Shown here in pieces: positions 1 through 64,000 of a stretch of DNA of 64,000 nt. Under the pieces are notes generated by a model. That model was not told the origin of the DNA. It was given only the letters and a program-made list of their open reading frames with translations, and ran no database searches. Each line of letters starts with the position of its first letter. The stretch's first letter is position 1. Origin of the DNA: an uncultured virus (IMG/VR IMGVR_UViG_3300025018_000159) (lineage: Duplodnaviria > Heunggongvirae > Uroviricota > Caudoviricetes); IMG/VR virus record IMGVR_UViG_3300025018_000159, one strand, 5' to 3'. Position numbers and translations under genes: made by a program.

Positions 1-164
1 TCTGCTGCTGACCTTACTGCTGACCATGCTGCTGACCATGCTGCTGACTCTGCTGCTGACCTTACTGCTGACCTTGCTGCTGACCTTGCTGCTGACCTTA
101 CTGCTGACTCTGCTGCTGACCTTGCTGCTGACCATGCTGCTGACCTTGCTGCTGACCATGCTGC
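1..164. repeat. 12-bp tandem repeat (variants of CTGCTGACCTTG/CTGCTGACCATG) encoding tetrapeptide repeats on the - strand
   Basis: About 13 imperfect 12-bp units are directly visible. Confidence 0.95.
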
Positions 165-9861: not shown

Positions 9862-10326
9862 ATGAGCACCACACCCAGAACCGACGCCATCTTTGACCTG
9901 ATCGGCAAAGCCAACCGCCCCGAGACCGACCACGGGCACTTTATGGCCCTCATGGAGGGGGCGCGGAATGGTGTGGAGGAGTTGGAGGCCGAACTGGCCA
10001 TCACCCGCTCCGCCCTGGATGAGATCCGTGGTGTGTCCGCTAACCCCAACTACACAAGCTCGGAGGAAACACCTATCTACTTTACGGGTGTCGATCCTGC
10101 GTCAGAAACAAAGGTAGCCTCTACCGTCACCGGGAATGATTTCAAGGATGTAAGCGGGGCACGTCCTAGCCGCGAACGCTCCCTGGCTATCACCAAGATC
10201 CAAGAGGCGATCATGTGGCTCGGGATGGATCTGAAGGCCATCGGAGAATCTCCGAACCCATACCCCGAGAGCTACAACCCCGAGTCGCCCGTGATTGAGC
10301 CGACTGCGGACGGGCTGAAGCTCTAA
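9862..10326 (+). CDS. Protein with C-terminal Acb2/Tad1-like helical hairpin motif
   Basis: SRERSLAITKIQEAIMWLG resembles the Tad1 segment SRENACALTHVEEALMWM (recalled sequence); N-terminal TPRTDA motif. Confidence 0.55.
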   Translation: MSTTPRTDAIFDLIGKANRPETDHGHFMALMEGARNGVEELEAELAITRSALDEIRGVSANPNYTSSEETPIYFTGVDPASETKVASTVTGNDFKDVSGARPSRERSLAITKIQEAIMWLGMDLKAIGESPNPYPESYNPESPVIEPTADGLKL

Positions 10327-41700: not shown

Positions 41701-44700
41701 TCGAACTCTACTCGATATGCCGGTATCGGTAAGTTAGAGTATGAGCTTAAAGAACAGGAGGAAAATAATGCAGCCTTCCAAATAGCTACACGCACCGAGA
41801 AGTCTGGGGGTAAGTATGACATCCGTGAAGCTAGAAATAGTTCTGAGTTTCCCGCTGAGTTGAAGAAAGCTAGAGACCTCAACATGTTGTTAGACGGGAG
41901 CTACGCCGCTCTCTACTCTCGCCTCCAATCTTTCACCCCTCTCCAAGCGGCAGGGCGTAACATGGCAATCGCTTTCGGGATGCAACGGTATGGTCTCTAC
42001 CAGAACATCGGCAAGAAGATCCAAGAGTTCTTCGACGTAGCTGAAGCTGCGGGCATCAAGCCCGAGGAACTTTACAAATACGGCTTCGATGTGAGGGGTG
42101 TGGGCAATCTGTCTCGCACCAACAACGAGTTGAAGCAGCAGTGGGAGAAGAACAAGGAGTTCTTGGAGAAGGGTCTTGCCGATCCTTCGCTTGGGGGTGT
42201 GGTTCAGCAGCAGCTCAGACAGCAAATTTCTCATGCGGATCTGGAGGCTCCGCTGGAGACGTTGGATAGATTGATCGAGAAGATGAAATCGGGCGTCCAT
42301 GTATTGAACCAAAACCCCAACGACCCAAAAGGCGTCATCTCCTTCCGTGGCCTCTCCCAAGCCGTCATCACCCTCCTCAAGACCGCTGACCCATCCACAG
42401 CCACACACGAGATGGCTCACCTTGCTCGTAGGTTCCTCTTCAACAAGGACATCCCGCAAGCGCAGCGTGAGGGCGTTACAGACGAAGACATCAATACTCT
42501 CGAAAAATGGGCTGGTGTAAAAGACGGTGTGTGGAATACCAAAGCTGAAGAAAAGTTCGCCCGTGGATTTGAACGCTACGTCCGTGACGGGGTGTTTCCT
42601 GAGAACTCGAAGGTGGCCGAACTTTTCAAGAAAATCTCCAACTGGCTTCAGAAGATCTATGCCACAGTCGAAGGCAGTTCAATTAACGTAGAGATCACGC
42701 CTGAGGTTAAGGCATTGTTCGACAAGCTCGTTACACGGGGTGAAACTGTCACGGCTCCAACTAAGGTTGCTGCCAAGGTTGTGGTTGAGCCGAAGGCTAA
42801 GGCTCCGGCTCCTGCCAAGAAAAAGCTCCCACCCGTCCGTCGCCCCGGCACATTCGGAGCCAAGCGTGAAATCACCGACGAAGTTCGTAAACGCTACGGT
42901 ATCCCTGAGAGCTACCTAAAGGCGAGCATGACCGACCAGGAAGCCATCGACGGGGCCACACTTCTCATCGCCAGATCCGAAGCACGCCTGCGTGACCCGT
43001 CCCTCCCTGCCGTCCAGCCTGTGGGCGAGGCTCTTGTGGCCGCGATCCTCGAAGACCCCACACGGGCACCCAGCAAGGCGGAAACGGCGCTTCTCGTCCA
43101 CGAGAGCATCAAGCGGGAGATGGCTCTTGATGTGGCTCGTAAGGATCACAAGGCGCTTCCACCGACAGCTAGCGAGGGTGACAACCAAGTTGCCGTGAAC
43201 GAAGTCAAGCGTGCCCGTGCTGCCCTTGAGGAAATACTCAACGTGCTCCAGCTTCGCGGCTCCCGCGCAGGTCTCGCCCTCCAGGGCTACAAGCTCATCA
43301 CCGACAGGCAGTTCAACCTCTCTGTGATGGAAGCCGATTTCCTGTCATGGAAGAATGACCACGAGGACGGCAAGGGTGCCAGGAAAGAGGCATTGACTGA
43401 TGCGGAAGTCGCACAGATCGAAGCTGCCCACGACGAGGTGAAGAAGTGGCGGGAGCGTGTGACTGAGCTTGAGGCTGAGATCAGTGAGGGTGCGAGGCGT
43501 GAAGCTGCTTTGATCGAGAGGCTTTCAAAGGGGGTGGCTACTAAAAATAAAGTTGCCACACGTAACCCGATTCCTAAAGCTGAGGTTAAGTCTGCGTTGG
43601 ACTTTTTGAGAAGCCGTGGTGTTTCGGTGTTGAGCCAGACACCCGACATCCTCTACCAAGGGGAATACCAGTCCGGCAACAATCTCGACCCCGACATCAT
43701 CGACGCCCTTGCCACGGTTGGGGCGTCCTACATCCAGGAAGGTGACTCTTCACTCGAAGCCTTCAGCAAGCGCCTGAACGAACAGTTTGACGGTGAGTTC
43801 AAGGCTTCCGCCGACCTGATCCTCGAAGCCTCCCGCGCCAAGCTTTCCACCAAGAGCAAGAAGCGTGCGAAGACCCCTAAGGAACTTTCCAATCTCATCG
43901 ACAAGGAAAACCCCAAGCTTTCCAACAGGCTGGTCTATAACGTGGCGCTTGGATTCATCCGCCAAGGTGCAAAAGGAAAAACCATCCTCGACTCCACGCT
44001 GAGGCTCCTTCAAAAGGATTTCCCTAACCTCACCCGCGAGGATGTGGCCATCGCCTTCACCGGATACGGAAGCGTCAAGTTCCCTGACCCGGCAGCGGAC
44101 AAAAAAGCTCTCCGTGAGATCCGCGAGATTGAACGCTTGGAGCTTCAACTTGCCGACGTGCTCAAGGGCGTCCCGGCACTCAAGACAGGGCAGCAGCGCG
44201 ACAAGTCCACGGACAAGGCACGTGATCTTCAGAAGCAGATCAGGGAAGCCTACCGTGCGATGGGTATCAAGCGTGCCACAAGCAGGAACCAGCTTGGCGG
44301 ATCGCTCGACGCAATGAAGACCCGCCTGAGCAATGAACTTTCCGATCTCAACAACGCCATTGCCACACGTGTCAAGCTTATTAAGGACAAGACCAAGGTT
44401 GAAGTTGATGAAGAAGTTATCCGACTTCGTGAGAAAGTCGCCCAAGCCCGCAAAGACTACAACGCCATTTTCCCGATAGACCGATCCCTGACGGAGAAGC
44501 AGCAGATCGACAGAGTCAACAAGGCGCTGGATCGCCGCATTGCTGAGGAAGAGGAGTTGGCGCGGAAAGGTCTCGTGGATCGCATCCTGAGCAAGAGCAA
44601 ACCTGTCACTGCCGCTGAAGTCGAAGCCCGTCGCAAAAAGCTCAACGGTCTTGTGGAAGCACGACGCAAAGCCAAAGCTGCCCGGATTCCAAAAATAAGC

Positions 44701-46572
44701 GAACTCGATCTGGCGATCAAAGCTTCTGAGACCACAGCTCGACGTGTCCTCAAGCATTATGAGGACATCATCGCCGGAATCAAGAAAGCCGCAAAGGCAC
44801 CCTTCGAGATTGTCCCCGGTGAAGACCTGGCCAACCTGTGGGATCTGCGTGACGCTGCCAAAGCTACTGTTGTGGAGATGCGGCAGATCGAGCGGGAGAT
44901 GCGCCGGAAAAGCCCCGAGCAGATCGCCTACGCCGCACGTCTCCGCAGTCTTGAGAAAACCGTCGCCGATCTGGAGTCACGTGCCAAGCGCGGGGACATC
45001 TCCAAGAAGGGCAAAGTGCTCGGCCCGGACACCCTGGAGGTCTCCGAACTCAAGAAGAGGGCTGACGCTGCCCGTGCTGTCATCGAAGCCCTGCGTGCCG
45101 CCACAGACCCGCGCACACCTGAGCAGAAGAAGGATGACGCCCTCGTCAGGGCGAGCAAAACCCGCAAGGCCAAGATTGAGGCCAGGATCGCGGCAGATGA
45201 TTATGTGGACATTCCACCTGTGACCCGAGCAGAGAGCAAGGAACTTGTCCAGGCACGCTTTGAGGAACGCCGTGCGAAGGATGAGTGGTTGAAGAACCGC
45301 CAGAAGTGGAACCTTGCGAACAGGGGAACCCTCGGGAAGATCAGCTACAAGCTGGGTTCTTTGTGGCAGTTCCGGAAAGTGCTCATCCTGGGTCTCGACT
45401 TGTTGATCTTCCGCCAAGGTATCGTGCCCTTTATGAACAGGCCGATCCGCACTGTCCGCAACCTGTTCAAAGCCATCGGAGCCTACAGCGAAGCGAACGA
45501 GCTTGACGTTTATGACAGTATCATGAACCCGGCCAGGAACCCTTATGCGAAATTCCACAGTGTGGCCAAGCAGATGAAGTTCTTTGGGCCGTTCGAGGAA
45601 GGATTCCGCAACAAGGAAGATCTTCCCGACCCGGAGATCCTGAACAAGCTGGCCAAGATTCCGGGACTCGGAACTGTCTCGCAGATCATGCTGTCGCTTG
45701 AGCGTATCAACAGGGTTCACTTTAACCTGATGGCTAATGATGCTTTTAATGCCCTCCTTAGTATTGCCCCAGCAAACGCGCCCACAAAATCTGATATTCT
45801 TCTGGCCGCAAACGCGGCAATGACAGCCGTTGGCCGTGGAAGTTTCAAAAACCAAAGGGCTGAGACTGGTATCGAGCTGGCCAACTATGCCTTGCTGTCC
45901 ACACGTTACTACGTGGCTCGTGCAAAGCTCGTGACCCTGGAACCGATCTGGTCAACCCGTGGAGGGTTCGAAGGGACGCTGAAAATGCGTTCCAAGATTG
46001 CGTTTCAGCTCTACGGCATGGCACTGTTCAACACCGCATTGGTTATGACACTCCTTGCCCGTGGGTTCATGGACGATGACGAGCGTGAGGACTTCATCAG
46101 CCCGACTTCGAGCAAGTTCGGAGCATTGAAGGTGAACGGAACCACCTATGAGCTGCTAGGCGGTGTCCGTGCCTTCATTAACCTTATCTCCCGCTTCGTT
46201 GCTGGCTACAAGGTGCAGGACGGGAAGGTCGTGAGCCTCGCCGGAGAAGACGCCAAGTATAAGCAGGATCTCAAGGAGGAGTGGACACGCTTCTGGCAGA
46301 ACCGTAGGAATATCAACTTTGCGCTCCTTTTCGATGTTGCATCAAGGCAGCAGTTCGACGGATCGCCCACCACGGTCAAGTCAGCCCTTACAGCTGCTGT
46401 TCTCAACATTAACATCGAGAATGACATCGAGATTATCAAGAAGCACGGTAAGGACAGCCCTATCCAAGCAGTTGTCTCAATCGCTGCTGTTCACTCCTCG
46501 CTGAACGTCAGGGCTGAGGACTACAAACCGAAAGAGAAGAAGTCGGCTGACCCCTTCAAATCCGGATTCTAA
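38728..46572 (+). CDS. Giant (2614 aa) internal virion/polyvalent protein with GNAT and zincin-like (HEXXH) domains
   Basis: GNAT: IEVNPDVRRQGRATQVI...LENFYAKQGF (about 40920-41130). Metallopeptidase-like: STATHEMAH...EEKFARGFERY (about 42330-42720). Confidence 0.85.
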   Translation: MPLPKYQDVLADPAFSNADTSRQREINDAYWNAYDKEIGDEYGKQQRVDTTAALDAKTRLEDAAPLERKALDLQRSAANYRIRARIGQKEGNLTQADVDAFGAEQQAITAKQEGLKKTYSMFSPEKQAEVEDFWNTASQTAADGGVFGATTNTSAFGEKDPQKEKEVYAQMRQGFAEEYGIAPEDVDSVVKHRMGLQEEAVSRDAFGTIHIKDDVLAKPIGDVEKAIKASDLPESVKEKALVESPQRIALFKARIMDQVKQQHPELYNSMGFIGDVENDYQGLIGQLNESAGAQLGESINTEFGLGRKAVRGVGLFADKIIEPLRANVEAFRDSKNYALDYADTLENEAKRVESLNQLSGQINKEKVRFLGTNTDAGVIGQAIGSAVESVTIGAATAGFGNAIVSAERIAKAGKFGKVALGFAKGVASTTPVAGYYGADQALSTYDQAIGAGKSEDEATKLAAISGSFEFGVTAFFGGTGAGGLEDIGQRLASGAVRKEVARNIWKSMGKFGKDVAGEVPEENIITALDTIYVQSKLNPGLTTDDLKKSLYDTTVATLAATGPLAGASATKDYFSKPTHEQTTEELHATSDARYTEEVLPEVQAERGTVPQSSPEAVAPTEQMTTTEFQEAVTERVAELEATENPTEEDAAELAELKLPVEEAAQARGVELVDEAPTTPPVGETISPEPTAPLPEATVSPEGKGGTTSLETVTQKASDNGVDLRVEENTSGIQLSGIEVNPDVRRQGRATQVISDLKEVADEKQLPISLKVEPSDEMSAATLENFYAKQGFVMQEDGETMVYKPAVVEPTTAEVVASSVPPETQTTPAQTSNTDVSTEPNESQISAAVEAAPVTVAEETDTDPDLEALSQELAKAFGIELGETLPDDGNGQMRLLQEAEPQNPLQDHPDLGVGIGGGERDSSLQSRVLNLSQRMQRGYPEIYATIQSSLPENLKPAAVYATGIRTNIYEHIGDLPHRMGSSELRASVSKIESNSTRYAGIGKLEYELKEQEENNAAFQIATRTEKSGGKYDIREARNSSEFPAELKKARDLNMLLDGSYAALYSRLQSFTPLQAAGRNMAIAFGMQRYGLYQNIGKKIQEFFDVAEAAGIKPEELYKYGFDVRGVGNLSRTNNELKQQWEKNKEFLEKGLADPSLGGVVQQQLRQQISHADLEAPLETLDRLIEKMKSGVHVLNQNPNDPKGVISFRGLSQAVITLLKTADPSTATHEMAHLARRFLFNKDIPQAQREGVTDEDINTLEKWAGVKDGVWNTKAEEKFARGFERYVRDGVFPENSKVAELFKKISNWLQKIYATVEGSSINVEITPEVKALFDKLVTRGETVTAPTKVAAKVVVEPKAKAPAPAKKKLPPVRRPGTFGAKREITDEVRKRYGIPESYLKASMTDQEAIDGATLLIARSEARLRDPSLPAVQPVGEALVAAILEDPTRAPSKAETALLVHESIKREMALDVARKDHKALPPTASEGDNQVAVNEVKRARAALEEILNVLQLRGSRAGLALQGYKLITDRQFNLSVMEADFLSWKNDHEDGKGARKEALTDAEVAQIEAAHDEVKKWRERVTELEAEISEGARREAALIERLSKGVATKNKVATRNPIPKAEVKSALDFLRSRGVSVLSQTPDILYQGEYQSGNNLDPDIIDALATVGASYIQEGDSSLEAFSKRLNEQFDGEFKASADLILEASRAKLSTKSKKRAKTPKELSNLIDKENPKLSNRLVYNVALGFIRQGAKGKTILDSTLRLLQKDFPNLTREDVAIAFTGYGSVKFPDPAADKKALREIREIERLELQLADVLKGVPALKTGQQRDKSTDKARDLQKQIREAYRAMGIKRATSRNQLGGSLDAMKTRLSNELSDLNNAIATRVKLIKDKTKVEVDEEVIRLREKVAQARKDYNAIFPIDRSLTEKQQIDRVNKALDRRIAEEEELARKGLVDRILSKSKPVTAAEVEARRKKLNGLVEARRKAKAARIPKISELDLAIKASETTARRVLKHYEDIIAGIKKAAKAPFEIVPGEDLANLWDLRDAAKATVVEMRQIEREMRRKSPEQIAYAARLRSLEKTVADLESRAKRGDISKKGKVLGPDTLEVSELKKRADAARAVIEALRAATDPRTPEQKKDDALVRASKTRKAKIEARIAADDYVDIPPVTRAESKELVQARFEERRAKDEWLKNRQKWNLANRGTLGKISYKLGSLWQFRKVLILGLDLLIFRQGIVPFMNRPIRTVRNLFKAIGAYSEANELDVYDSIMNPARNPYAKFHSVAKQMKFFGPFEEGFRNKEDLPDPEILNKLAKIPGLGTVSQIMLSLERINRVHFNLMANDAFNALLSIAPANAPTKSDILLAANAAMTAVGRGSFKNQRAETGIELANYALLSTRYYVARAKLVTLEPIWSTRGGFEGTLKMRSKIAFQLYGMALFNTALVMTLLARGFMDDDEREDFISPTSSKFGALKVNGTTYELLGGVRAFINLISRFVAGYKVQDGKVVSLAGEDAKYKQDLKEEWTRFWQNRRNINFALLFDVASRQQFDGSPTTVKSALTAAVLNINIENDIEIIKKHGKDSPIQAVVSIAAVHSSLNVRAEDYKPKEKKSADPFKSGF

Positions 46573-53384: not shown

Positions 53385-53712
53385 TGGGAGCACCTTACGG
53401 GTGCCAGTCGCCAGTCTTTCCTGAAGTCAGATCTCTCTAAACGCTAGAGCACTGCATCCCCCGTATTTCTACGGCTGAGGGGCTTCGAACCCCTTCTTTC
53501 ACCAGATCTCAATCACCGAGCGGGAATCGAACCCGCCTGCTCTTTTATGGTTTTGAACCACACTCGCAGCCACCATCCAAGGCGGGGAATCGAACCCCGA
53601 ACACATCCAATTATGGACGATGACCGCGAGTGTGGTGACAGACTTTAACCCGTCTGTCAGGGGCTGATGACAACCCGAATTTCCGGGACTATCGTGTTCA
53701 GCGGTTGTCTAT
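53385..53712 (-). ncRNA. Unclassified structured RNA region with three T-arm-like hairpins
   Basis: GGTTCGA hairpins at 53583-53599, 53520-53536 and 53478-53494; a 23-bp stem (53557-53579 with 53614-53636) with four G-U pairs on the - strand. Confidence 0.6.
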
Positions 53713-55967: not shown

Positions 55968-56376
55968 TGGTGGAGCTAAGGGGAGTCGAACCCCTGTCCG
56001 TAACCGCGTTATTAACATTTTCTACAAGCTTAGACCTTTATGGAGTCACTCAAGGGCGTCCGGTTAGGGACGCCTCCACCACCCGGTCTTTACGGCGACG
56101 GGTTCCGTTGTTTGCCTCACTGTTTCAGGTCATCCGCCCGGAGGCGCGGCTTAGGATGATCTTGCCCGGTTTGTTTCTCACCGCAGCGCGGGCGTTTCGG
56201 TGAGCGTGTTTTGCTTAGGCTACGAGAGCAAGCTCACCCTGAGGTGCGCTGCGTCCGAAGATTCCGCGAATGACGTTGATGCCATTTGAACTTTGAGCGG
56301 CTTTTTAAGAGGCCAGCCGATCAACCTCTACTTGCTTATGTTAATTTTTCAGTTACGTCGAAACCAGTATAGCCCC
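55968..56376 (-). ncRNA. ssrA: tmRNA; predicted tag (A)GINVIRGIFGRSAPQGELALVA
   Basis: 5' GGGGCTATACTGGTTTCGAC and 3' GACAGGGGTTCGACTCCCCTTAGCTCCACCA; G3-U alanine determinant; tag ORF 56283-56215. Confidence 0.97.
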
Positions 56377-56519
56377 TTTGTTGTAGATTAAAATTAAAAT
56401 GGATGTGCTAATTATGCCAAAAGGTTAAGCTCACTTTCTCGCCCCGGTCGCTGTCGCGCCTTTGCTCATACCTACTCCTTAGATGATGCCTTTCTGGGGC
56501 GACATTTCCATTGTTGAGA

Positions 56520-56900
56520 TTATTTGAAGTCCACACTCGGTGGCCCTGCCGTCACGTTGACGAATTTTGAAACCCTGTCAACCAGCTTTTTGAAAGCCGA
56601 CGTTTTGACACGCGGGCTGAAGCTGAGTAGTTCGCCGTATGCTTCCGGATCTTCCTCATGGAGGAGGTCGGCGTCGGCTGTGGTGATGGAGTAGTTGAGC
56701 GTGCGCTTGATGGCAAGCTTCAGTCCATCGACGGTGATCGTCTTGGAACCCTCTTCACCATTGTGGAAGGAATCGGCGATCCATGTGCGGATGGCAATCT
56801 CTTCCTCGCGGGCTTGGTTCTGGACGATACGGAGTTCGCTAAGTCTTTCCTTAGCATCGAGCAGTTGCTCTTGTGTTGGTAATTTTGTTTTCTTGGCCAT
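56520..56900 (-). CDS. Conserved phage protein of recombination modules
   Basis: 126 aa; coiled coil then EEGSKTIT...GPPSVDFK; first gene of the operon. Confidence 0.75.
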   Translation of the reverse strand: MAKKTKLPTQEQLLDAKERLSELRIVQNQAREEEIAIRTWIADSFHNGEEGSKTITVDGLKLAIKRTLNYSITTADADLLHEEDPEAYGELLSFSPRVKTSAFKKLVDRVSKFVNVTAGPPSVDFK

Positions 56901-57024
56901 TGTCGTTGTCGTTGTTTTTCTTGCTGACGAGAGGAGTAAAACACGGGTGAGAAAACTTGTCTAGCATTTTTCTCAATTTTTTTTGTTCCTTGCCAAATCT
57001 GGGTTTCCGGCGTAGAAAGCGCCC

Positions 57025-57249
57025 ATGTCCGAAAACGCTACAGCAGTCATGCGGAGACTGCGAGAACAAATTTCCAAGCCCGAGATCAATCTCTTGGCAC
57101 TGGCACGGGGGAGCAAAGTCAGCTACGACAAGCTGCGCCGTCTGAAGCTTGATGATAGTCCGCTATCTGTCGCCGACGCAGAAACCCTTCACATCTTCCT
57201 AACAGGAAAAACCTTTATCGCCACACCTGATGCTCCACAACATTCCTGA
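57025..57249 (+). CDS. Small Cro-like HTH protein
   Basis: LLALARGSKVSYDKLRRL; follows TTGCCA-N17-TAGAAA in a divergent promoter region. Confidence 0.6.
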   Translation: MSENATAVMRRLREQISKPEINLLALARGSKVSYDKLRRLKLDDSPLSVADAETLHIFLTGKTFIATPDAPQHS

Positions 57250-59500
57250 AGAACTCACCCGCCTTGGCCAATGGGTTACGTTCGATATTACCGAAGACGG
57301 TAAGAAGATCCCGTATATTCCCGGCACGAACGACATGGCCGCTTCCAACCGTCCCCGCGACTGGCGCTCATTCCGCGCAGCCTGCAAGGATGTCGAGGAA
57401 GGCAAACGCCAGCACGTCGGCTTCGTCGTCACCACACGAGACCCCTATGTCTTCATCGACTTGGATGACCCCGAGGACGAGGATCAGAAAGCTGTCTTCA
57501 AGCGCCTCGATACCTACGCCCAGCTCAGTGTCTCCGGCGAGGGTGCCCACCTGATTGCCGTCGGAAAGTTCAAGGGTAAAGGCAAGCACCCTGCGTCTCC
57601 GGCGGCGGGGTTGTTCCAGGATAACAGGTTTGTGCTTATGACCGGGGAAATTCTCCAGAACAGATCTACTATAAAAGCAGTAGATGACTGCGATCTCCAA
57701 AGCATCCACACATGGCTCGGCGGCGGCAAGGACTATGAGCTTGAGGATCTCGTGGAATATGCTTCGAAAATCCCCGACCAAACGGTGGTCGACCTGGGTT
57801 GTGACCGCTTCACCAAATTCAACGATCTCTGCAACGGCAAGTGGCAGCAGTTCGATGAGTATCATGGAGACCACAGCACAGCAGACCATGCCTTCCTTGC
57901 CATGCTCTGCGACATCACCGAGTCAAACGACCAAGTGCGCTTTCTCTTCTCCATCTCAGGCATGTGGTCTCCTGAGCGTGCAGCCAAGAAGTCAGGTCAC
58001 GGACTTGCGGGGTATGTTGACCGGACGATCCGCAAGATCCGGGGAAACCAGCAGCGTGAGCGCCGTTCCCTCGAAGAGTGCCCCCTATCCTTCGGCGAAA
58101 GAAAAGTGTTGACAGAGATCCACCCGGCTACCCCGGAAAAGGGAAAATGCGACCTGATCGAGAGCTTGCCTGACGGTCTGGTGAAAGACATCGCACGCTA
58201 CTCCTTCGAAACCTCCTACATGCCTCTTCAGGAGGCTTCGATCCTCGTGGGCTTGCAGGTTGTCTCCGTGCTCTGTGGCCGGGGCTACCTGACCCCCACG
58301 AAGTCCGGCCTGAACATGTGGCTCATCCTTGTGGGTGGAACATCCTGCGGAAAGGACGAATACCAGAACGGTGTCAAGCGGATTCTGAACAAGATTGCCA
58401 AGTCGCATCCCAGCGTCCTGAAGATCTTCGGCGGAGAGATCGTTTCCGGGCCAGGCATCGAGACTGTGTTCCAGGATACATTCCGCTACTGCTCATATAT
58501 CCCTGAGTTCGGCGACACGTTCAAGCTGCTCGCCAACCCACAGGCACCCGATTATGTCAAGACCCTTTCACGCGGACTCCTCAACTCCTACAACTCGGCT
58601 GGTGTCGGCGGCACGAGCGAGGGACGGCGCAAGGCTCAGGGGACAGACGAGAAGGTGCGTGTGGAACGCCCCTGTCTCTGCGTCGCCGGAGAGGCCACCC
58701 CCGAATCACTCTACGGAAACATGACCACGAGGGAGCTGTCCACAGGTTTCCTCCAAAGGTTCATGCTCCTCAACGTGCCACTGACCTCGTGGTCGATGAT
58801 CGAGAACGAGAACCACGGCGCGGAGCCTCCGAAGGCTCTCGTGGATCGTCTGGCGAACCTGGCCATGATGATGGACTCTGCCGACGTGAGCAACAGCTTC
58901 CAGACCGTAGAGTCGTCACCTGAGGCCGCAGATCTCCTGAAGCGTTACCGGAACCACAAGCGGAAGGAAATCATGGAGTGCCCTGACGGACTTTCGAAGA
59001 AGGAAGTCATCAACCGCGCAGGACTCAAGGCTCTGCGTCTCGCTTCACTTCTGGCTGTCGGTTCCGATGAGCACTCCCCCCGCATTGGGCTGGAACACGC
59101 CCAGTGGTCAATCGACTTCACTGAGAAATGTGACAACGAGATCCTAGCCAAGTTCGATTCCGGCGAGGTTGGCTCCGGCCAAGTCAAGCAGGAAAATGAG
59201 ATAATTCAGGCTTGCAAAAACGTGGCGGCTATGAAAGTCGGGATGAGGCAATCGCTTGGGATGAGCCGGAAGGTCGCCCTTGAGAGCACAATGGTGCCGC
59301 TGGCCGTAATCAAGGCGAAGGTCGTGAACAATGCCGTCTTCGCTTCGGATCGTCTGGGAGCTGTCTCAGCCTTCGACAAATGCGTGGACTCTATGGTCAA
59401 GGCCGGGGTGTTTGTCCGGGTGTCGGAAACCCTCGCAGCAGACAGTTATAACCACCTGAAGGGGGTGTTGCTGTGCGTGAGTGGGAAGTATCTGAAGTGA
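57230..59500 (+). CDS. Primase-polymerase (NrS-1-type AEP) fused to a helicase-like P-loop domain
   Basis: FIDLD, YAQLSVSGEGAH, DHSTAD, Walker A GGTSCGKD and GFLQRF motifs. Confidence 0.9.
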   Translation: MLHNIPEELTRLGQWVTFDITEDGKKIPYIPGTNDMAASNRPRDWRSFRAACKDVEEGKRQHVGFVVTTRDPYVFIDLDDPEDEDQKAVFKRLDTYAQLSVSGEGAHLIAVGKFKGKGKHPASPAAGLFQDNRFVLMTGEILQNRSTIKAVDDCDLQSIHTWLGGGKDYELEDLVEYASKIPDQTVVDLGCDRFTKFNDLCNGKWQQFDEYHGDHSTADHAFLAMLCDITESNDQVRFLFSISGMWSPERAAKKSGHGLAGYVDRTIRKIRGNQQRERRSLEECPLSFGERKVLTEIHPATPEKGKCDLIESLPDGLVKDIARYSFETSYMPLQEASILVGLQVVSVLCGRGYLTPTKSGLNMWLILVGGTSCGKDEYQNGVKRILNKIAKSHPSVLKIFGGEIVSGPGIETVFQDTFRYCSYIPEFGDTFKLLANPQAPDYVKTLSRGLLNSYNSAGVGGTSEGRRKAQGTDEKVRVERPCLCVAGEATPESLYGNMTTRELSTGFLQRFMLLNVPLTSWSMIENENHGAEPPKALVDRLANLAMMMDSADVSNSFQTVESSPEAADLLKRYRNHKRKEIMECPDGLSKKEVINRAGLKALRLASLLAVGSDEHSPRIGLEHAQWSIDFTEKCDNEILAKFDSGEVGSGQVKQENEIIQACKNVAAMKVGMRQSLGMSRKVALESTMVPLAVIKAKVVNNAVFASDRLGAVSAFDKCVDSMVKAGVFVRVSETLAADSYNHLKGVLLCVSGKYLK

Positions 59501-59512
59501 GACCGGGGCAAT

Positions 59513-59604
59513 AAAAAAAGCCCCCGAATTACGCATCGTCGAGAGGCGCGGGAGGTCTGCTGGTTTAGTATGCAGAAAAGCCACGCCTTGACAGGGTGGG
59601 GCTT
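59513..59604 (-). terminator. Two tandem terminator-like hairpins closing the leftward operon
   Basis: Minus strand: AAGCCCCACCCT..AGGCGTGGCTTTTCT and CCTCCCG...CGGGGGCTTTTTTT. Confidence 0.65.
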
Positions 59605-59655
59605 CCGAACGGTCGATGCACGGGACGCTATGCGCCTGGGATCTCCTTGTTAGCG
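59604..59655 (+). other. attC-1 (short)
   Basis: TCCGAAC GGTC GATGCACGGGACGC TAT GCGCCTGGGATC TCCTT GTTAGCG. Confidence 0.75.
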
Positions 59656-59774
59656 ACGAGAACATCCTTGTGTTCGTTGCATCTGGGGCGGTATTCATCA
59701 TCGCCGCGCATCCAGCTTGTTTGGATTTCCACTTTGCCGACCGCTTTATTCTCGCATAGTTGGCATTTTGGCAT
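59628..59774 (-). CDS. Cassette A ORF, small Cys-containing protein
   Basis: MPKCQLCENKAVGKVEIQTSWMRGDDEYRPRCNEHKDVLVANKEIPGA; the frame stays open upstream to 59900 without an ATG. Confidence 0.5.
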   Translation of the reverse strand: MPKCQLCENKAVGKVEIQTSWMRGDDEYRPRCNEHKDVLVANKEIPGA

Positions 59775-59858
59775 TCCGTTGGGGTGTCCCTTGTATTTCT
59801 GGAATCTGCTGATTCGCGGGTATTTTCGATTACTCCTAGTCTTTAGGTTGTTCGGTTT

Positions 59859-59943
59859 CGCTAATAAATCGCCGTATCCAACGGCGGCCTGCCCTCTTAT
59901 TTATTCGGAGTCTTTCGCGCCGTGGATAGGCTCGGCGTTGTGG
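59859..59943 (+). other. attC-2 (R'' reads AAT instead of AAC)
   Basis: CGCTAAT AAATC GCC(G)TATCC(A)ACGGCG...CGCCGTGGATAGGC TCGGC GTTGTGG. Confidence 0.85.
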
Positions 59944-60239
59944 CCAAGAATCGGCACGTATTTGTTGAGCGTGCGCGTCTCGATTTGGTTGAGCGGTTTC
60001 CATTCTGCGAAGTCACCAGCCATCCGGCCTTGCCCTTCGTTATCCAGCTCCCCTTGGAGATCGGACTCCGGACACCATTTCAGCCCGCCATAGCCGATCC
60101 ACTTCTGGCGGCACTTCGCTACCGCTGGGCGGGGCATCTTGTAGGCGCGGCAGTATTCGGCCAGTTGGTCGAGCCAGCTTTTATATGAGTCACCGAAAAG
60201 CAGGATCGAGCCATCGGGGAAGGTTGCTTTGATTGTCAT
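59901..60239 (-). CDS. Cassette B ORF, hypothetical protein
   Basis: 112 aa; the stop lies in the loop of attC-2. Confidence 0.8.
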   Translation of the reverse strand: MTIKATFPDGSILLFGDSYKSWLDQLAEYCRAYKMPRPAVAKCRQKWIGYGGLKWCPESDLQGELDNEGQGRMAGDFAEWKPLNQIETRTLNKYVPILGHNAEPIHGAKDSE

Positions 60240-60270
60240 TTTATCGGGCGTTTTCGTTGTTTCGTAAGAT

Positions 60271-60361
60271 CCACAACAAGCGTCTGGTGGTGACGCCGTT
60301 GAAGCATTCTGATTAAATTCGGGGCTCTTTTTCCGGCGTCACCACAGACGGAGCGTTACGC
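60271..60361 (+). other. attC-3
   Basis: CCACAAC AAGCG TCTG(G)TGGTGACGCCG...CGGCGTCACCACAGA CGGAGC GTTACGC. Confidence 0.9.
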
Positions 60362-60714
60362 CTATAAACTCCGACGACCATGAAGAGGTCGTGACTCTCG
60401 CCAATTTTCATCCCTTCCCATCCAGTCGGCACATGACCGAAAGTTACTTCGTATTCACCTCTCTCGATCCGCAGCTTTGCGCGGCGTTTCAACTCCTCGG
60501 GGGAGTATTGAGCAATCTCGTTTTCCAAGAATTGCACCGCCGCGCCGAGCGTTACATCCCCCTGTCGCACTCGATACCTTTCCCTTACTTTTCGGTATCC
60601 ACGCTCTAGGGCAATTCGCTCAGCGTAACAAGACATCGCACTACAATCCCCACTCGGAGTCTTGGGAGGGGCGGCGATTTCAGGCGGGGGAGTATCGTTT
60701 GTGGTATCAGTCAT
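60313..60714 (-). CDS. Cassette C ORF, hypothetical protein
   Basis: ATG 60714 inside the attC-4 loop (MTDTTNDT...); stop inside the attC-3 loop. Confidence 0.75.
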   Translation of the reverse strand: MTDTTNDTPPPEIAAPPKTPSGDCSAMSCYAERIALERGYRKVRERYRVRQGDVTLGAAVQFLENEIAQYSPEELKRRAKLRIERGEYEVTFGHVPTGWEGMKIGESHDLFMVVGVYRRNAPSVVTPEKEPRI

Positions 60715-60749
60715 TTTCGTGTGTGGATGTGTGGATTTTATCGTTCGAT
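60623..60749 (+). other. attC-4
   Basis: GCGTAAC AAGAC ATC(G)CAC(T)ACA(A)TCCCCAC...GTGTGGATGTGTGGAT TTTATC GTTCGAT. Confidence 0.8.
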
Positions 60750-60944
60750 TTACCAATCCCAGTCGATGAACTCAGCCCATGCGTAGGCTTGGATCTTCTC
60801 GAACGTGGTTTCCGGCATGACTTCTTTTCCGTCGTATTCGAGGCCGAAGACCCCGTGACAGTAGCGAATAATTTGAGTGCGCCCGTCGTGCGCTTCCCAG
60901 AAGACCTTTCGGCCAGGTGTTTGTCCTTGTAGTTCATTTTTCAT
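60750..60944 (-). CDS. Cassette D ORF, hypothetical protein
   Basis: 64 aa, MKNELQGQTPGRKVFWEAHDG...; the alternative frame 60937-60707 looks less protein-like. Confidence 0.6.
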   Translation of the reverse strand: MKNELQGQTPGRKVFWEAHDGRTQIIRYCHGVFGLEYDGKEVMPETTFEKIQAYAWAEFIDWDW

Positions 60945-60967
60945 CGGTGTTTTGGGGTGATTCGGAA

Positions 60968-61067
60968 ATCGAACAAGCGGATCGTGGCGACCCGATCCCG
61001 CTCCCCACGGTAGATTTATGTAGGCTTTGAGGGTGCGGGATTGGTCGCCACATCCTTGACGTTCTGC
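60968..61067 (+). other. attC-5
   Basis: ATCGAAC AAGC GGAT(C)GTGGCGACC CGATCCCGC...GCGGGATTGGTCGCCACATCC TTGAC GTTCTGC. Confidence 0.9.
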
Positions 61068-61112
61068 TTAAGATGTGCCGCGAGGCAGTCCGTGGCGACG
61101 GCGAGGAGGCCG

Positions 61113-61280
61113 TCACATTTCAAATCTCTTCACAGAGATAATCTTCGATAGGTGCTGGTAATTCTTCAATTTCTCCCTAGCCTTCTTGATTGACTTGGCC
61201 TGCACTTCAGTTTCCACGGTCTGTCCGTTGCTAAGTGCAACCACACATACCCATGTCACTACTGCGATATTTTTATCCAT
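61113..61280 (-). CDS. Small hypothetical protein (55 aa)
   Basis: Hand translation MDKNIAVVTWVCVVALSNGQTVETEVQAKSIKKAREKL... Confidence 0.6.
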   Translation of the reverse strand: MDKNIAVVTWVCVVALSNGQTVETEVQAKSIKKAREKLKNYQHLSKIISVKRFEM

Positions 61281-61617
61281 GATTCAGGTTTCTGAAATAC
61301 TCATCCCGCTTTTCCCTGACTTCCTTTTTGGTCTTACCTCTGGCGATCACTCTACCTTTGAAGGTAAACTTGAACGGGAGGTCGTAACCAATGTAGCGGT
61401 CTGGGTTTTCAGCAGCCTTGCTGGCAGCGGTTTTTTTCCTGCGGACAGGTGCGTTCAGCGAAGCGAAAAACGCATCCCTCGCTTTCTCAGCGGCTTTGCC
61501 GGAGACCGTGCCGAGGGATTTGCGCCTCTGCTTGTCGTCCACATAGTAGAGGGCGTAGGTGTAGCCGTTGACTTGGACTAAGGCTGTGCCAAGGGAGGTG
61601 TCGGGTATTTCAGTCAT
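61273..61617 (-). CDS. Protein with AP2/integrase-arm-binding-like modules
   Basis: YYVDDKQRRKSLGTVSGKAAEKARD and FKGRVIARGKTKKEVREKRD; ATG 61617. Confidence 0.5.
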   Translation of the reverse strand: MTEIPDTSLGTALVQVNGYTYALYYVDDKQRRKSLGTVSGKAAEKARDAFFASLNAPVRRKKTAASKAAENPDRYIGYDLPFKFTFKGRVIARGKTKKEVREKRDEYFRNLNHG

Positions 61618-61807
61618 GGTTGGGTTTGAGTTTCTTTTTCTGGCATGAAGGGCAGTTGTCCCTGTGGGTGTCGTTGCCTTCTTCGCGGTCGCCCGCAAGG
61701 TAGAGCCAGCGACCACACAGGGATTTGCCACCGCACCCCACGTAATGGAACTTGCTGCGTGGGTTGAGCGGTTGGGGGTTCCACCATCCTGTAAGTGTGT
61801 CACTCAT
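61610..61807 (-). CDS. Small zinc-binding protein
   Basis: KFHY...SLCGRW...CPSC; ATG 61807. Confidence 0.7.
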   Translation of the reverse strand: MSDTLTGWWNPQPLNPRSKFHYVGCGGKSLCGRWLYLAGDREEGNDTHRDNCPSCQKKKLKPNHD

Positions 61808-62012
61808 GCGTGTTGTCGATAAGTTTGATGCCGGAAATGACGGAGAGATTTTTAGAGTAATGTTTTGATTTAACGCCTCCATCCTCCCACGGATCAGCCC
61901 ACGTTTTAAGTTGCATGGTATCTTTTCCTCGATCCACAAAAAGAACGAAAACGCTGTTAATTCCTACAGGAATGCGCTCCAGCCGGAGCTTTGGGCGGTT
62001 GAAGAGTCTCAT
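61800..62012 (-). CDS. Hypothetical protein
   Basis: 70 aa; overlaps neighbouring ORFs. Confidence 0.6.
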   Translation of the reverse strand: MRLFNRPKLRLERIPVGINSVFVLFVDRGKDTMQLKTWADPWEDGGVKSKHYSKNLSVISGIKLIDNTHE

Positions 62013-62172
62013 GGCTTCTTGGCTTTCTGTTCTTGGACGTAGGACTTGCTACCACACGGAAATGGCCCCTCTGGAAGCTTCCTCGGCCAAGGCCATGCTG
62101 GTAGAAATTTTGGCCTCTTCTTGTGGTCGTAGCACTGAGTCTTGTCGCCGCTGATAAATGTAGGAACACGTA

Positions 62173-62469
62173 TCAGTTGTAAACGATCACGCCCTCCAGT
62201 TGTCCGGGCGTCCACCCGAGTGCCTTGTTGCGGGTTGCTGCGATGTCGCGGGCTTCGGCTTCCGTGAGGTGACGGAGACCCCCCGTGTGGTCACAGAATG
62301 CCGTGTAGTTCCATTCGGTGTTCGGTGCCCCGTTGCGTGCCACAGCGTGAACCGTGTCCGGCTTGTCGCTGGTGTTGTAGCGTTCGAGGGGAGTGCCCTT
62401 GACTTGGCTACGGGATTTGGAGACCACTTTAAAGTGGCTAGTGGGTTGCTTTTTAGTTTTGGTGCTCAT
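62173..62469 (-). CDS. Hypothetical protein
   Basis: 98-aa ORF. Confidence 0.7.
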   Translation of the reverse strand: MSTKTKKQPTSHFKVVSKSRSQVKGTPLERYNTSDKPDTVHAVARNGAPNTEWNYTAFCDHTGGLRHLTEAEARDIAATRNKALGWTPGQLEGVIVYN

Positions 62470-62678
62470 GTTCTTTGTAGGTTACACCCCAAAACCCGCT
62501 GGCTCTTGCGAACTCAGCGGGTCATTTGTGTTAGGGGTTGTTCTCCCCTTTATTCAGTTAATCGTTTTCATATTACTTCCTCCTTTCACCCCAAAACCCT
62601 CCCCCGCGTCTTGGCAGGGAAGGGTGGGACGGCTCGTGAGGATAAGTCACAAGCTAACGCTGACGTTGTTGTGGCAGA

Positions 62679-63026
62679 TCAGGCAGATTCTTTGGGTTGA
62701 CGTTGGTTTGTTGGCAGTAACCACAGGGAAGAGTAACCTTTGCCGTAGAGGGCATCCAGCGGGACGAGCTGCTGATTCCGGTAAGATCGCGTCCCCAGTT
62801 CGCCGGAGGGCAGGACGATAACCTTGCGGAACCAAGCAGGCCACTTTTTGGTGTATCGCCACAGATAGAGACCCGGCCTGCGGGGTTCCCGCTGACCCCA
62901 TGCCCAGCCCTCAGGCGCGGTATCGAACTCCGGGTATTCACTCCCGTGGTTGTCGGCTTCCGTGTGAACGGAAGTCATCAGCTTGTAGAGGTGCTGGTGC
63001 GGTTTCAGTTTGGTTTTGGTTGTCAT
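62679..63026 (-). CDS. Hypothetical protein
   Basis: 115 aa; AACGACA before the ATG; PRRPGLYLWR motif. Confidence 0.7.
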   Translation of the reverse strand: MTTKTKLKPHQHLYKLMTSVHTEADNHGSEYPEFDTAPEGWAWGQREPRRPGLYLWRYTKKWPAWFRKVIVLPSGELGTRSYRNQQLVPLDALYGKGYSSLWLLPTNQRQPKESA

Positions 63027-63063
63027 TGTCGTTGGCGTGATGGTAGTTGAATTGTCCCGAAGG

Positions 63064-63402
63064 TCAAATTGTTTTCTTCAGTATTTTTGTGATGACTGAG
63101 AGGTGGTTGATGATCCTGTTTTTGATCTTTTCCGGGTCTTCCCCGTGCCAGACCACAGGGCTGAGGAAGTGGAACTTGTCCGTCCACAGCGGGATCAGTT
63201 CCACACGGTGATGGTTCAGCTTGAAGGAATACTCCCTGCCGTCAGGCAGTTTGAAACAGTCGCTTGAGACGGTGGCTCCCAGCAGGCGTCCGGCTTGGAT
63301 GAGCTGTGAGTGGACTTCGAGGGTCTTGCGCTGAAGGTTGCTATTCTTCCTGCGGTTCAAGTTGAAAGGCTTGCGGTTGCGGATGTTGTCGATGAAGTTC
63401 AT
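63064..63402 (-). CDS. Hypothetical protein
   Basis: 112 aa; ATGA-coupled. Confidence 0.7.
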   Translation of the reverse strand: MNFIDNIRNRKPFNLNRRKNSNLQRKTLEVHSQLIQAGRLLGATVSSDCFKLPDGREYSFKLNHHRVELIPLWTDKFHFLSPVVWHGEDPEKIKNRIINHLSVITKILKKTI

Positions 63403-63674
63403 TGTTTCTCTAGGTGTGATTTCAGTTCTTGGCTATAGTTGGTAATTACTTGCCCCTCTCCCACAAGTGCTATACCTAAGGTTCCGTGGCTGGTCTTCAC
63501 CACGGCGAGTTTGTCCTGCACGACCCTGTGCTTGATCCACTGGCGACGTTGCCTGTCCGTCCTGCCCGGTGCGGCCACAGCCCCTGAAGGGTAGACCACA
63601 CCGATGAGTTGGACTTTTGCTTGGAGTGCCACGAGGATGGGTGCGACTTTCCGGTTCCAGTTTATGGGGTTCAT
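63399..63674 (-). CDS. Hypothetical protein
   Basis: Start MNPINWNRK at 63674; ATGA-coupled. Confidence 0.65.
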   Translation of the reverse strand: MNPINWNRKVAPILVALQAKVQLIGVVYPSGAVAAPGRTDRQRRQWIKHRVVQDKLAVVKTSHGTLGIALVGEGQVITNYSQELKSHLEKQ

Positions 63675-64000
63675 TGTGATATGCGGTAAAGTTCCCTCCG
63701 GCTGTTTGACGCCCAAACCTCCACAGTCTGTCCGGCGTAAACCCGCTTCCAGTCCTTGGCCTCAGGGATCTTGATCCCGTCGTTGGCATAGCCTAGGCTG
63801 GTGTAGTGAAGTTGGATGTGCTCCAAGCTGGGGTTCAGCCTGTTGCGCCTCCAAAGGTCGAAGTCCCTGGCCTTGATCTCCGCAACCTCGTGGATGCGTA
63901 GACCTTCCCGCTCGATGACGGTGTAGGCTTCCGCAACCGTGGGTGCCGCTGCGACTTGGTTGAGGCCGGAGGCCGTGTAGTGGAATGCTGCTAGTTTCAT
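63671..64000 (-). CDS. Hypothetical protein
   Basis: 109 aa; the ATG is at the window edge. Confidence 0.7.
   Translation of the reverse strand: MKLAAFHYTASGLNQVAAAPTVAEAYTVIEREGLRIHEVAEIKARDFDLWRRNRLNPSLEHIQLHYTSLGYANDGIKIPEAKDWKRVYAGQTVEVWASNSRRELYRISQ

Follow-up and report, generated by a model that had tools for sequence, protein, structure and literature searches.

The stretch of DNA analysed here, a 64,000-nt groundwater sequence of an uncultured virus of the Caudoviricetes (IMG/VR record IMGVR_UViG_3300025018_000159; hereafter the window), reads as a phage genome with no close described relative. It encodes a primase-helicase (57230–59500; phrog_3022, E 1.6e-121), a family A DNA polymerase, a helicase, a Cas4-type exonuclease, tail-fibre proteins, and an amidase. 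Near the end of its leftward operon lie four small open reading frames (ORFs) interspersed with imperfect palindromes. An initial annotation, made from the letters alone, described this locus (59604–61067) as an array of integron cassettes bounded by attC recombination sites, with no integrase and with all genes inverted. Integrons are bacterial gene-collecting devices that hold chiefly antibiotic-resistance genes and, as recognised recently, anti-phage defence genes. Our analysis supports, with a probability that we put at roughly 0.87, the reading that 59649–61067 is an integrase-less integron-type array, that is, a group of clustered attC sites without an integron integrase (CALIN), with four cassettes, carried by a phage and served in trans by an integron integrase (IntI) of a type encoded on the contigs L002 and L007 described below.

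The initial annotation had listed five palindromes of attC layout, with a left box (R'') ending in AAC, a right box (R') starting with GTT, and extra unpaired bases on the left arm. Each was folded as single-stranded DNA, in either strand, and compared with 200 shuffles. Sites 3 and 5 formed strong imperfect hairpins (z −4.2 to −4.7), which none of the 200 shuffles equalled, and site 2 folded moderately (z ca. −1.9), whereas sites 1 and 4 folded no better than shuffled sequence (z +0.7 to +1.5). Minimum free energy as the sole criterion was dropped, because longer stretches scored lower and the sites were not singled out among AAC...GTT pairs. We then computed an arm-pairing score for all 1351 AAC...GTT pairs of the window lying 50–140 nt apart. 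Site 5 ranked first (17), site 3 second (15.5), and site 4 fifth (9.5). In 30 dinucleotide shuffles, a score of at least 15 was reached by 0.03 pairs per 64-kb window and a score of at least 9.5, the level of site 4, by 2.8 pairs. The arm alignment agreed with the annotated asymmetry: the unpaired extra bases of sites 5 (two), 3 (one, in a stem of 17 pairs), and 4 (three) were confined to the left arm, with no gap in the right arm.

The initial annotation had proposed a scan with an attC covariance model. Here a model of our own, R1, was used, which was built from four sites adjacent to IntI genes (sites A and C of L002 and both sites of L007), with the structure written in from the arms and with the window excluded. 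Site D of L002 was left out of R1, its right arm having been misplaced in the alignment, and R1 recovers it in part (E 0.05). Run on the window with filters off, R1 matched sites 2, 3, and 5 on the + strand at exactly the annotated coordinates (Table 1); the next-best match had an E of 0.27, and sites 1 and 4 gave no match up to E 10. Of the five palindromes annotated, therefore, sites 3 and 5 stood by fold and model and site 2 by a moderate fold and the model, and sites 1 and 4 did not stand by either. Site 1 is a mere GTT core and not an attC. Site 4 is accepted as a putative attC on comparative grounds given below, with neither the fold nor R1 in its support. GTT was present in sites 2–5 and AAC in sites 3, 4, and 5; R'' of site 2 ends in AAT. 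In Rfam, no family matched the hairpins and no attC family was among the matches.

Two further stretches came up in these searches. The third-ranked AAC...GTT pair (score 13) is a long GC-rich imperfect palindrome at 1677–1792 with 25 pairs and gaps in both arms; it lies inside overlapping long frames and is not matched by R1. The other, 59520–59555 (−), closes the leftward operon immediately to the left of the array; it gave a sub-threshold Rfam match to abiF RNA (32.8 bits against a gathering score of 37; E 0.004), with a T run next to it on the − strand, after the match.

The boxes are chained as had been annotated, each R' being complementary to R'' of the next site, and all four pairings are in the sequence as written: GTTGTGG (59937) with CCACAAC (60272), GTTACGC (60355) with GCGTAAC (60623), GTTCGATTT (60743) with AAATCGAAC (60966), and, with one mismatch, GTTAGCG (59649) with CGCTAAT (59860). 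In other words, the start of each cassette is complementary to R'' of its own attC, in three exact links (7, 7, and 9 nt) and one single-mismatch link. GCAGAAC, the complement of R' of site 5, is absent downstream within the window; therefore site 5 is the end of the array.

The strongest evidence came from a cassette found elsewhere. Public runs containing the window stretch are labelled aquifer and cold-spring metagenomes, and contigs of four public sequencing runs were aligned to 56000–64000. In each of the four runs, a contig (7–12x, vs 2–6x for pieces of the window phage) matched the window over 60353–60747 only; where it extended beyond these limits, its further sequence did not resemble the window. 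The protein of this unit led to the IMG/VR contig L001 and to the Joint Genome Institute (JGI) contigs L002 and L003, in which the 395 nt of 60353–60747 are 97.5% identical to the window (L002 1094–1488) and nothing else is in common. The ends of the shared unit lie within 2–4 nt of the crossover points G↓TT that had been predicted for cassette 3, and these independent contigs thereby uphold the annotated boundaries. The few surplus matching letters are explained by the conserved C-G↓TT core, since C precedes GTT in all 45 distinct sites of the family described below. The 127 nt of site 4 contain none of the 10 differences between the window and L002. The observations of the initial annotation were thus largely right, except for sites 1 and 4 as palindromes, and its interpretation as a cassette array is supported by the sharing of cassette 3. 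No other cassette of the window was common to any of the 90 loci compared.

Table 1 Features of the cassette array in the window.
Feature	Position	Strand	Observations
Left boundary core GTTAGCG	59649..59655	+	6 of 7 letters complementary to site 2 R'' CGCTAAT; surrounding 59604–59655 z +0.7, +1.2
Cassette 1	59650..59937	+	Bounded by G↓TT at 59649 and 59937; holds ORF1 and site 2
ORF1, 48 aa	59628..59774	−	Cys/His spacing like a small zinc ribbon; last 7 codons left of the cassette boundary; from the ORF list
attC site 2	59859..59943	+	R1 32.3 bits, E 1.5e-7; z −1.9; R'' AAT
Cassette 2	59938..60355	+	Starts with TTGTGG, complementary to CCACAA in site 3 R''
ORF2, 112 aa	59901..60239	−	phrog_32581, E 3.8e-10; last 12 codons beyond the cassette
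attC site 3	60271..60361	+	R1 38.1 bits, E 2.2e-9; z −4.2, −4.6
Cassette 3	60356..60743	+	Common to the IntI-bearing contigs L001, L002, and L003
ORF3, 133 aa from ATG 60714	60313..60714	−	Last 14 codons in site 3, beyond the cassette
Putative attC site 4	60623..60749	+	Identical to L002 site B (L002 1092–1218); the shared unit ends on the right with its R'
Cassette 4	60744..61061	+	Starts with TTCGATTT, complementary to AAATCGAA in site 5 R''
ORF4, 64 aa	60750..60944	−	Wholly within cassette 4; from the ORF list
attC site 5 (last)	60968..61067	+	R1 22.5 bits, E 1.7e-4; z −4.5, −4.7

Read in the orientation of the window, L002 has a leftward gene for a 341-aa protein (1821–2846), then, ca. 50 nt from the start codon, TTAATCAGCT directly followed by GTTGTGT, and then four attC-like sites, A–D. 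The array holds at least four cassettes, of which the shared one is the second, and its boxes form four links (GTTGTGT with ACACAAC, GTTACGC with GCGTAAC, GTTCGCT with AGCGAAC, and GTTCTCC with GGAGAAC). The genes after intI encode a small terminase, a phrog_2472/26724 protein, a phrog_332 portal, a major head protein, and a tail tubular protein. Judged from these genes, L002 is an unrelated podovirus-like phage contig with what appears to be a complete integron, and cassette 3 of the window is one of its cassettes. In L003, positions 1–160 (minus), compared with L002 530–620, show attC of cassette C running at G↓TT into the beginning of cassette C itself, where L002 has cassette D. This junction would stem from a tandem copy or from an excised circle that was assembled as a contig and, either way, is a rearrangement at the crossover point. 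The L002-type contig and the pieces of the window phage occur in the same four runs. A short identity of another kind was also seen: the 13 letters TTCGCTAATAAAT at 59857–59869 of the window, which comprise R'' and the spacer of site 2, are identical to those that open cassette C of L002 (1096–1084, minus).

The 341-aa protein of L002 looks like an integron integrase. Its best family was TIGR02249 (243.9 bits, E 2.5e-72, model positions 2–313 of 315), with Xer families at 116 bits or less. The best solved relative was VchIntIA (2a3v, E 1.6e-39), and this alignment was gap-free across chain residues 118–316, a stretch that includes the segment without counterpart in Xer proteins; the match to XerD was restricted to residues 260–304 of the L002 protein. 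An extra segment between the catalytic motifs is what defines IntI against the Xer recombinases. R134, H265, R268, H291, and Y300, which by analogy we take to be the catalytic residues of a tyrosine recombinase, were invariant across 23 members of the clade. The L002 IntI had 993 homologs at E ≤1e-20, many of them on contigs of 33–42 kb. Species-representative prokaryote genomes held only distant recombinases (≤45% identity over short stretches; ≤30% over more than 100 residues), and so gave no clue to the host. L007, a 38-kb IMG/VR contig, encodes an IntI 77% identical to that of L002; it shares the conserved attI-like stretch with L002 and contains two sites, linked by GTTAGCC with GGCTAAC and GTTCATC with GATGAAC. 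In contrast to L002 and L007, in which both intI and attI adjoin the array, the window has neither beside its array. As had been annotated, no recombinase is visible in the window: tblastn and an IntI hidden Markov model gave 9 bits at best, and none of the 51 long frames matched PF00589. Because no intI lies beside the array, it is classed as a CALIN.

With a profile of the 23 IntI clade members, relatives were detected on 220 IMG/VR contigs; 80 of these were retained. The R1 scan covered 77 loci, leaving out three that duplicate L001, L006, and L007; several of the loci are near-duplicates. We obtained 65 matches (E ≤0.05) in 37 of the 77 IntI-bearing loci, and all 65 lay 5' of intI on the opposite strand. 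Among 27 scanned ORFs adjoining intI, hallmark phage genes were a phrog_332 portal (L021 and L022), a large terminase (L038), and a helicase or primase (L017, L024, L058, and L060); other loci had no PHROG match. In L063, 4795–6762 (−) encodes a phrog_91 origin-nicking protein beside the integron, and this contig may be a plasmid-like element rather than a phage.

The family alignment comprised 47 sites (45 distinct) and was fitted to the model, which favours structure; 95.1% of its cells pair, vs 64.5% in shuffles. All 14 L-helix pairs had changed on both sides, and the covariation score was 0.71, vs 0.17 in shuffles and at most 0.125 with slid partners. GTT was present in 45 of the 45 distinct sites and AAC in 43; one member besides site 2 has AAT. 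AACAAG follows R'' in 35 of the 45. Extra bases numbered 1–4 in the left arm of every site, the right arm had none in 43 of 45, and the left arm exceeded the right in all 45. The second extra base was always A (T on the bottom strand). According to Nivina et al. 2016 (PMC5027507), the extrahelical bases of attC lie near L'', on the arm opposite AAC of the recombined bottom strand; attC-aadA7 has G16/T23 and VCR2 has G16/T20/T24. The one-sided extra bases with an invariant A match this L'' pattern of extrahelical G16/T23-24. From the same rules it follows that the + strand of the window is the top strand and the − strand the recombinogenic bottom strand.

The annotated inversion of all array genes is borne out by the ORF list: ORFs 1–4 are all on the − strand and thus antisense to the attC polarity. 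The 10 differences between the window and L002 in ORF3 comprise seven synonymous third-position changes and three non-synonymous ones, vs 4–9 amino acid changes and 1–8 stops in the other five frames, which indicates that ORF3 is a real gene in its − strand frame. The C-terminal tail of ORF3 differs in L002. Since ORFs 1, 2, and 3 cross the left boundary of their cassette, their last 7, 12, and 14 codons, respectively, belong to the neighbouring unit. ORF2 had 38 homologs (40–85% identity), in which conservation ends at Asn-Ala, corresponding to AAC-G of the bottom-strand R', and the tails beyond are unrelated; the boundary Asn was present in at least 12 of 16 aligned sequences. This suggests that ORF2 likewise moves as a reversed cassette. 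These comparisons support coding on the − strand for two of the four ORFs, ORF2 and ORF3. Pfam and PHROG searches gave no function for ORFs 1–4 and no family at all for ORF1 and ORF4, and the ESM Atlas gave no usable match for ORF2 or ORF3.

ORF3 is accompanied in its movement by site 4, an attC located upstream of the ORF3 start; the mobile unit is therefore an attC followed by a gene. The canonical order, a gene followed by an attC with the gene pointing towards its own attC, was seen for none of the four ORFs of the window. In L002, cassette C is canonical, with the stop codon within its own attC, cassette B is reversed, and cassette D is probably reversed. A crude comparison of open-frame lengths in 43 cassettes classed 10 as reversed, one as canonical, and 32 as undecided. 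The reversed layout raises the question of how cassettes are expressed when the attC precedes the gene.

Taken together, we propose the following course of events. Each cassette spans TT of one GTT core to G of the next and holds one small gene and one attC. The attC would act as a folded single-strand recombination site, of which IntI of the L002/L007 type would fold the bottom (−) strand and cut A↓AC (G↓TT on the top strand). A plain G↓TT of the phage genome (59649), a short way within the end of the leftward operon, was probably where the first cassette came in; those added later would have used sites already in the array. G↓TTAGCG at 59649 is the likely entry point of the first cassette, and the left limit of cassette 1 is less certain than the other boundaries. 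Since the sites of the window belong to a family that adjoins IntI genes of phage contigs, its cassettes would have been inserted, and would in principle be removable, by such an IntI in trans. This IntI could come from a co-infecting IntI-encoding phage or from the host. The initial annotation had assumed a supply by the host or from outside the window; a host supply is not required, as co-occurring phage contigs encode an IntI of matching type. The genes are co-directional with the leftward operon and would probably be expressed by read-through and not from an integron promoter. We infer that the array may still be mobile and undergo shuffling in the window phage itself, and that its genes may have an accessory role.

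Several observations weigh against this reading. R1 is family-specific: on the Vibrio-type integron of phage MK672802 it found no match (best E 0.36), so it does not by itself link the sites of the window to classical attC, and that link rests on the architecture and on the adjacency of IntI. The extended box consensus RYYYAAC/GTTRRRY, given in a part of PMC5027507, is matched only loosely, GTTACGC and GTTCGAT fitting three of the four variable letters and GTTGTGG, GTTCTGC, and GTTAGCG two of the four. Of the annotated sites, the first is no attC, the fourth is supported neither by its fold nor by R1, and R'' of site 2 is AAT. No IntI is encoded within the 64-kb window, which is only part of the genome. 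The score of the L002 IntI (243.9 bits) is under the curated NCBIfam cut-off of TIGR02249 (265). Finally, for 56000–64000 the contigs of the four runs showed no joints, deletions, insertions, or circles of the window array, in assemblies that drop rare variants and circles and leave parts of the array without cover in some runs.

Part of this list would also be expected of a dead relic, in which a single past capture of real cassettes, through IntI or illegitimate recombination, left ordinary phage genes that have since become fixed and are immobile in the window phage. The lack of intI, the imperfect sites 1, 2, and 4, and the lack of alternative joints in the contigs fit such a relic, as do the 10 substitutions in cassette 3 relative to L002, which mean that the sharing is not very recent. 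For phage CALINs, part of Qi et al. 2023 (PMC9892861) proposes off-target or illegitimate recombination. On the other hand, sites 3 and 5 are intact with the full features of the family, the stretch of site 4 was spared by all of these substitutions, AAT recurs in a second family member, and the same runs contain IntI-bearing contigs of the same attC type. We regard the relic as unlikely, though it is the most serious of the alternatives.

Far less probable is that the hairpins act in the RNA of the leftward operon, for example as terminators, stabilisers, or RNase III sites, and that the shared 395 nt reflect ordinary phage mosaicism. Phage genomes are mosaic, the hairpins do lie between small co-directional genes, and part of site 2 fits a terminator-like pattern on the − strand. 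However, the two strong hairpins lack a T run after them and have no match in Rfam, and an RNA hairpin has no use for one-sided extra bases, an invariant AAC/GTT, or an R'/R'' chain. Furthermore, both ends of the shared unit fell within 2–4 nt of G↓TT points predicted beforehand, and the same type of site stands 5' of IntI with a single polarity in 37 of 77 loci. Chance palindromes and short inverse matches chosen by eye would explain sites 1 and 4, which are on a par with shuffled sequence, and are a negligible explanation of the whole, given the rarity of shuffled pairs at the score of sites 3 and 5 (0.03 per window), the R1 matches at E 2e-9 to 1.7e-4 with nothing else under 0.27, and the independent contig that confirms one predicted cassette.

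The remainder of the genome offered little for comparison. A nucleotide match to the window was absent among GenBank phages (blastn), its primase was at most 29% identical to that of any GenBank phage, and IMG/VR held no relative of the primase. The end sequence of the window was absent from IMG/VR, and the single JGI contig of this phage (L004) extends it by 361 nt only. ARAGORN found no tRNA across the whole window. A 2614-aa ORF at 38728–46572 (+) gave no result in Pfam and PHROG searches. Head-to-tail repeats of the CTGCTGACC type occupy positions 1–120 inside an open frame and run past the left edge of the window. An inverted repeat in an intergenic gap at 53557–53636 has 23-nt arms that are 83% complementary and includes GGGGAATCGAACCCC, which resembles a tRNA T arm. 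A 43-nt intergenic piece (62485–62527), upstream of the ORF at 62173–62469, was matched in all four runs by a contig with foreign flanks, and the bin holding this contig reached a depth of up to 20x in one run.

One cassette of an IntI-bearing contig has a recognisable domain. In the protein of the first cassette of L007, the Acb2/Tad1 hairpin domain PF24729 was matched above the cut-off (E 1.2e-6); this domain is named after phage counter-defence sponge proteins. The window encodes the same domain outside the array, in a 154-aa ORF at 9862–10326 (+; PF24729, E 1.1e-6), part of which is 80% identical over 61 aa to the C-terminal part of the L007 protein. This ORF stands alone between a promoter-like stretch (TTGACC...TAGATA) and a GC hairpin with a T run, and no attC was found near it.

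These observations allow a broader and more tentative proposal, which we consider a real possibility rather than the expected outcome: many environmental phages, as a large group, could possess integrons as a tool of their own. Such phages would have IntI beside packaging or replication genes (contigs of ca. 25–43 kb), one attC family, and mostly attC-then-gene cassettes expressed by phage read-through. The cassettes would carry accessory or counter-defence genes, of which the Acb2/Tad1-like cassette of L007, with a relative elsewhere in the window, is an example, and would pass between unrelated phages, including integrase-less borrowers, during co-infection.

An attC array in a phage is in itself already a known kind of element. 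According to a portion of Qi et al. 2023 (PMC9892861), 10,705 phage genomes yielded three complete integrons, one In0 element, and 17 CALINs, and IntI1 recombined five of six phage attC sites. The array of the window resembles these CALINs in that a phage of lytic appearance carries clustered attC sites, but no intI, with small cassettes that have no assigned function. It differs from them in that one cassette, bounded by G↓TT, is common to an IntI integron of an unrelated phage contig, and in that its four genes are antisense to attC, whereas TJE1 and PH101 are presented in that portion as typical arrays. The complete integrons described there are presented as pieces of host integrons in temperate phages and not as intI beside packaging genes.

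As far as the classical integron is set out in parts of PMC5027507, the window shares with it the G↓TT crossover, the AAC/GTT boxes, the imperfect hairpin, the L'' extrahelical bases, the bulged T of the bottom strand, the variable loop, and a cassette start complementary to R'' of its own attC. The arrays of L002 and L007 further resemble it in beginning beside the 5' end of intI with the attC top strands reading away. A classical integron consists of intI, attI, the promoter Pc, and the array, and the first two are lacking in the window. Unlike in the classical integron as outlined in PMC5027507, the genes run opposite to the top strand of attC and read towards intI and phage genes and not away from Pc.

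Some toxin-antitoxin cassettes of Vibrio cholerae are in reverse orientation. In the chromosomal integron of this species, toxin-antitoxin cassettes have their own promoters and are expressed independently of Pc, as part of PMC11023631 describes. Those cassettes are self-expressed addiction modules in a bacterial array, whereas all genes of the window array are reversed and have no known Pfam or PHROG function. For the origin of the array, a preprint by Loot et al. (10.1101/2022.09.11.507474) reports, in the part considered here, that IntI1 puts cassettes at ordinary genomic attG sites in E. coli chromosomes, giving single attC sites lacking an integrase (SALINs) and small CALINs. This route would explain a short array that starts at a plain G↓TT by the operon terminators; the system described there concerns E. 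coli chromosomes with IntI1 and not phage DNA.

In the literature searched, mostly outside subscription journals, we found no report of G↓TT cassette sharing between phages, of an IntI clade beside packaging genes, or of mostly reversed arrays. Cassette sharing at G↓TT between unrelated phages, the gene-after-attC layout, and the large set of IntI-bearing viral contigs appear to be new. The same G↓TT-cut cassette in two unrelated phages, only one of them with an integrase, is a natural case that gives direct comparative evidence of such transfer. It implies that integron recombination serves phages in exchanging small accessory genes, beyond mosaic homologous exchange. The 220 IMG/VR contigs, with arrays in 37 of the 77 loci examined, provide a sizeable pool to mine for accessory and counter-defence genes. 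If native phage integrons hold true, they would mirror, on the side of the phage, the defence cassettes in bacterial integrons.

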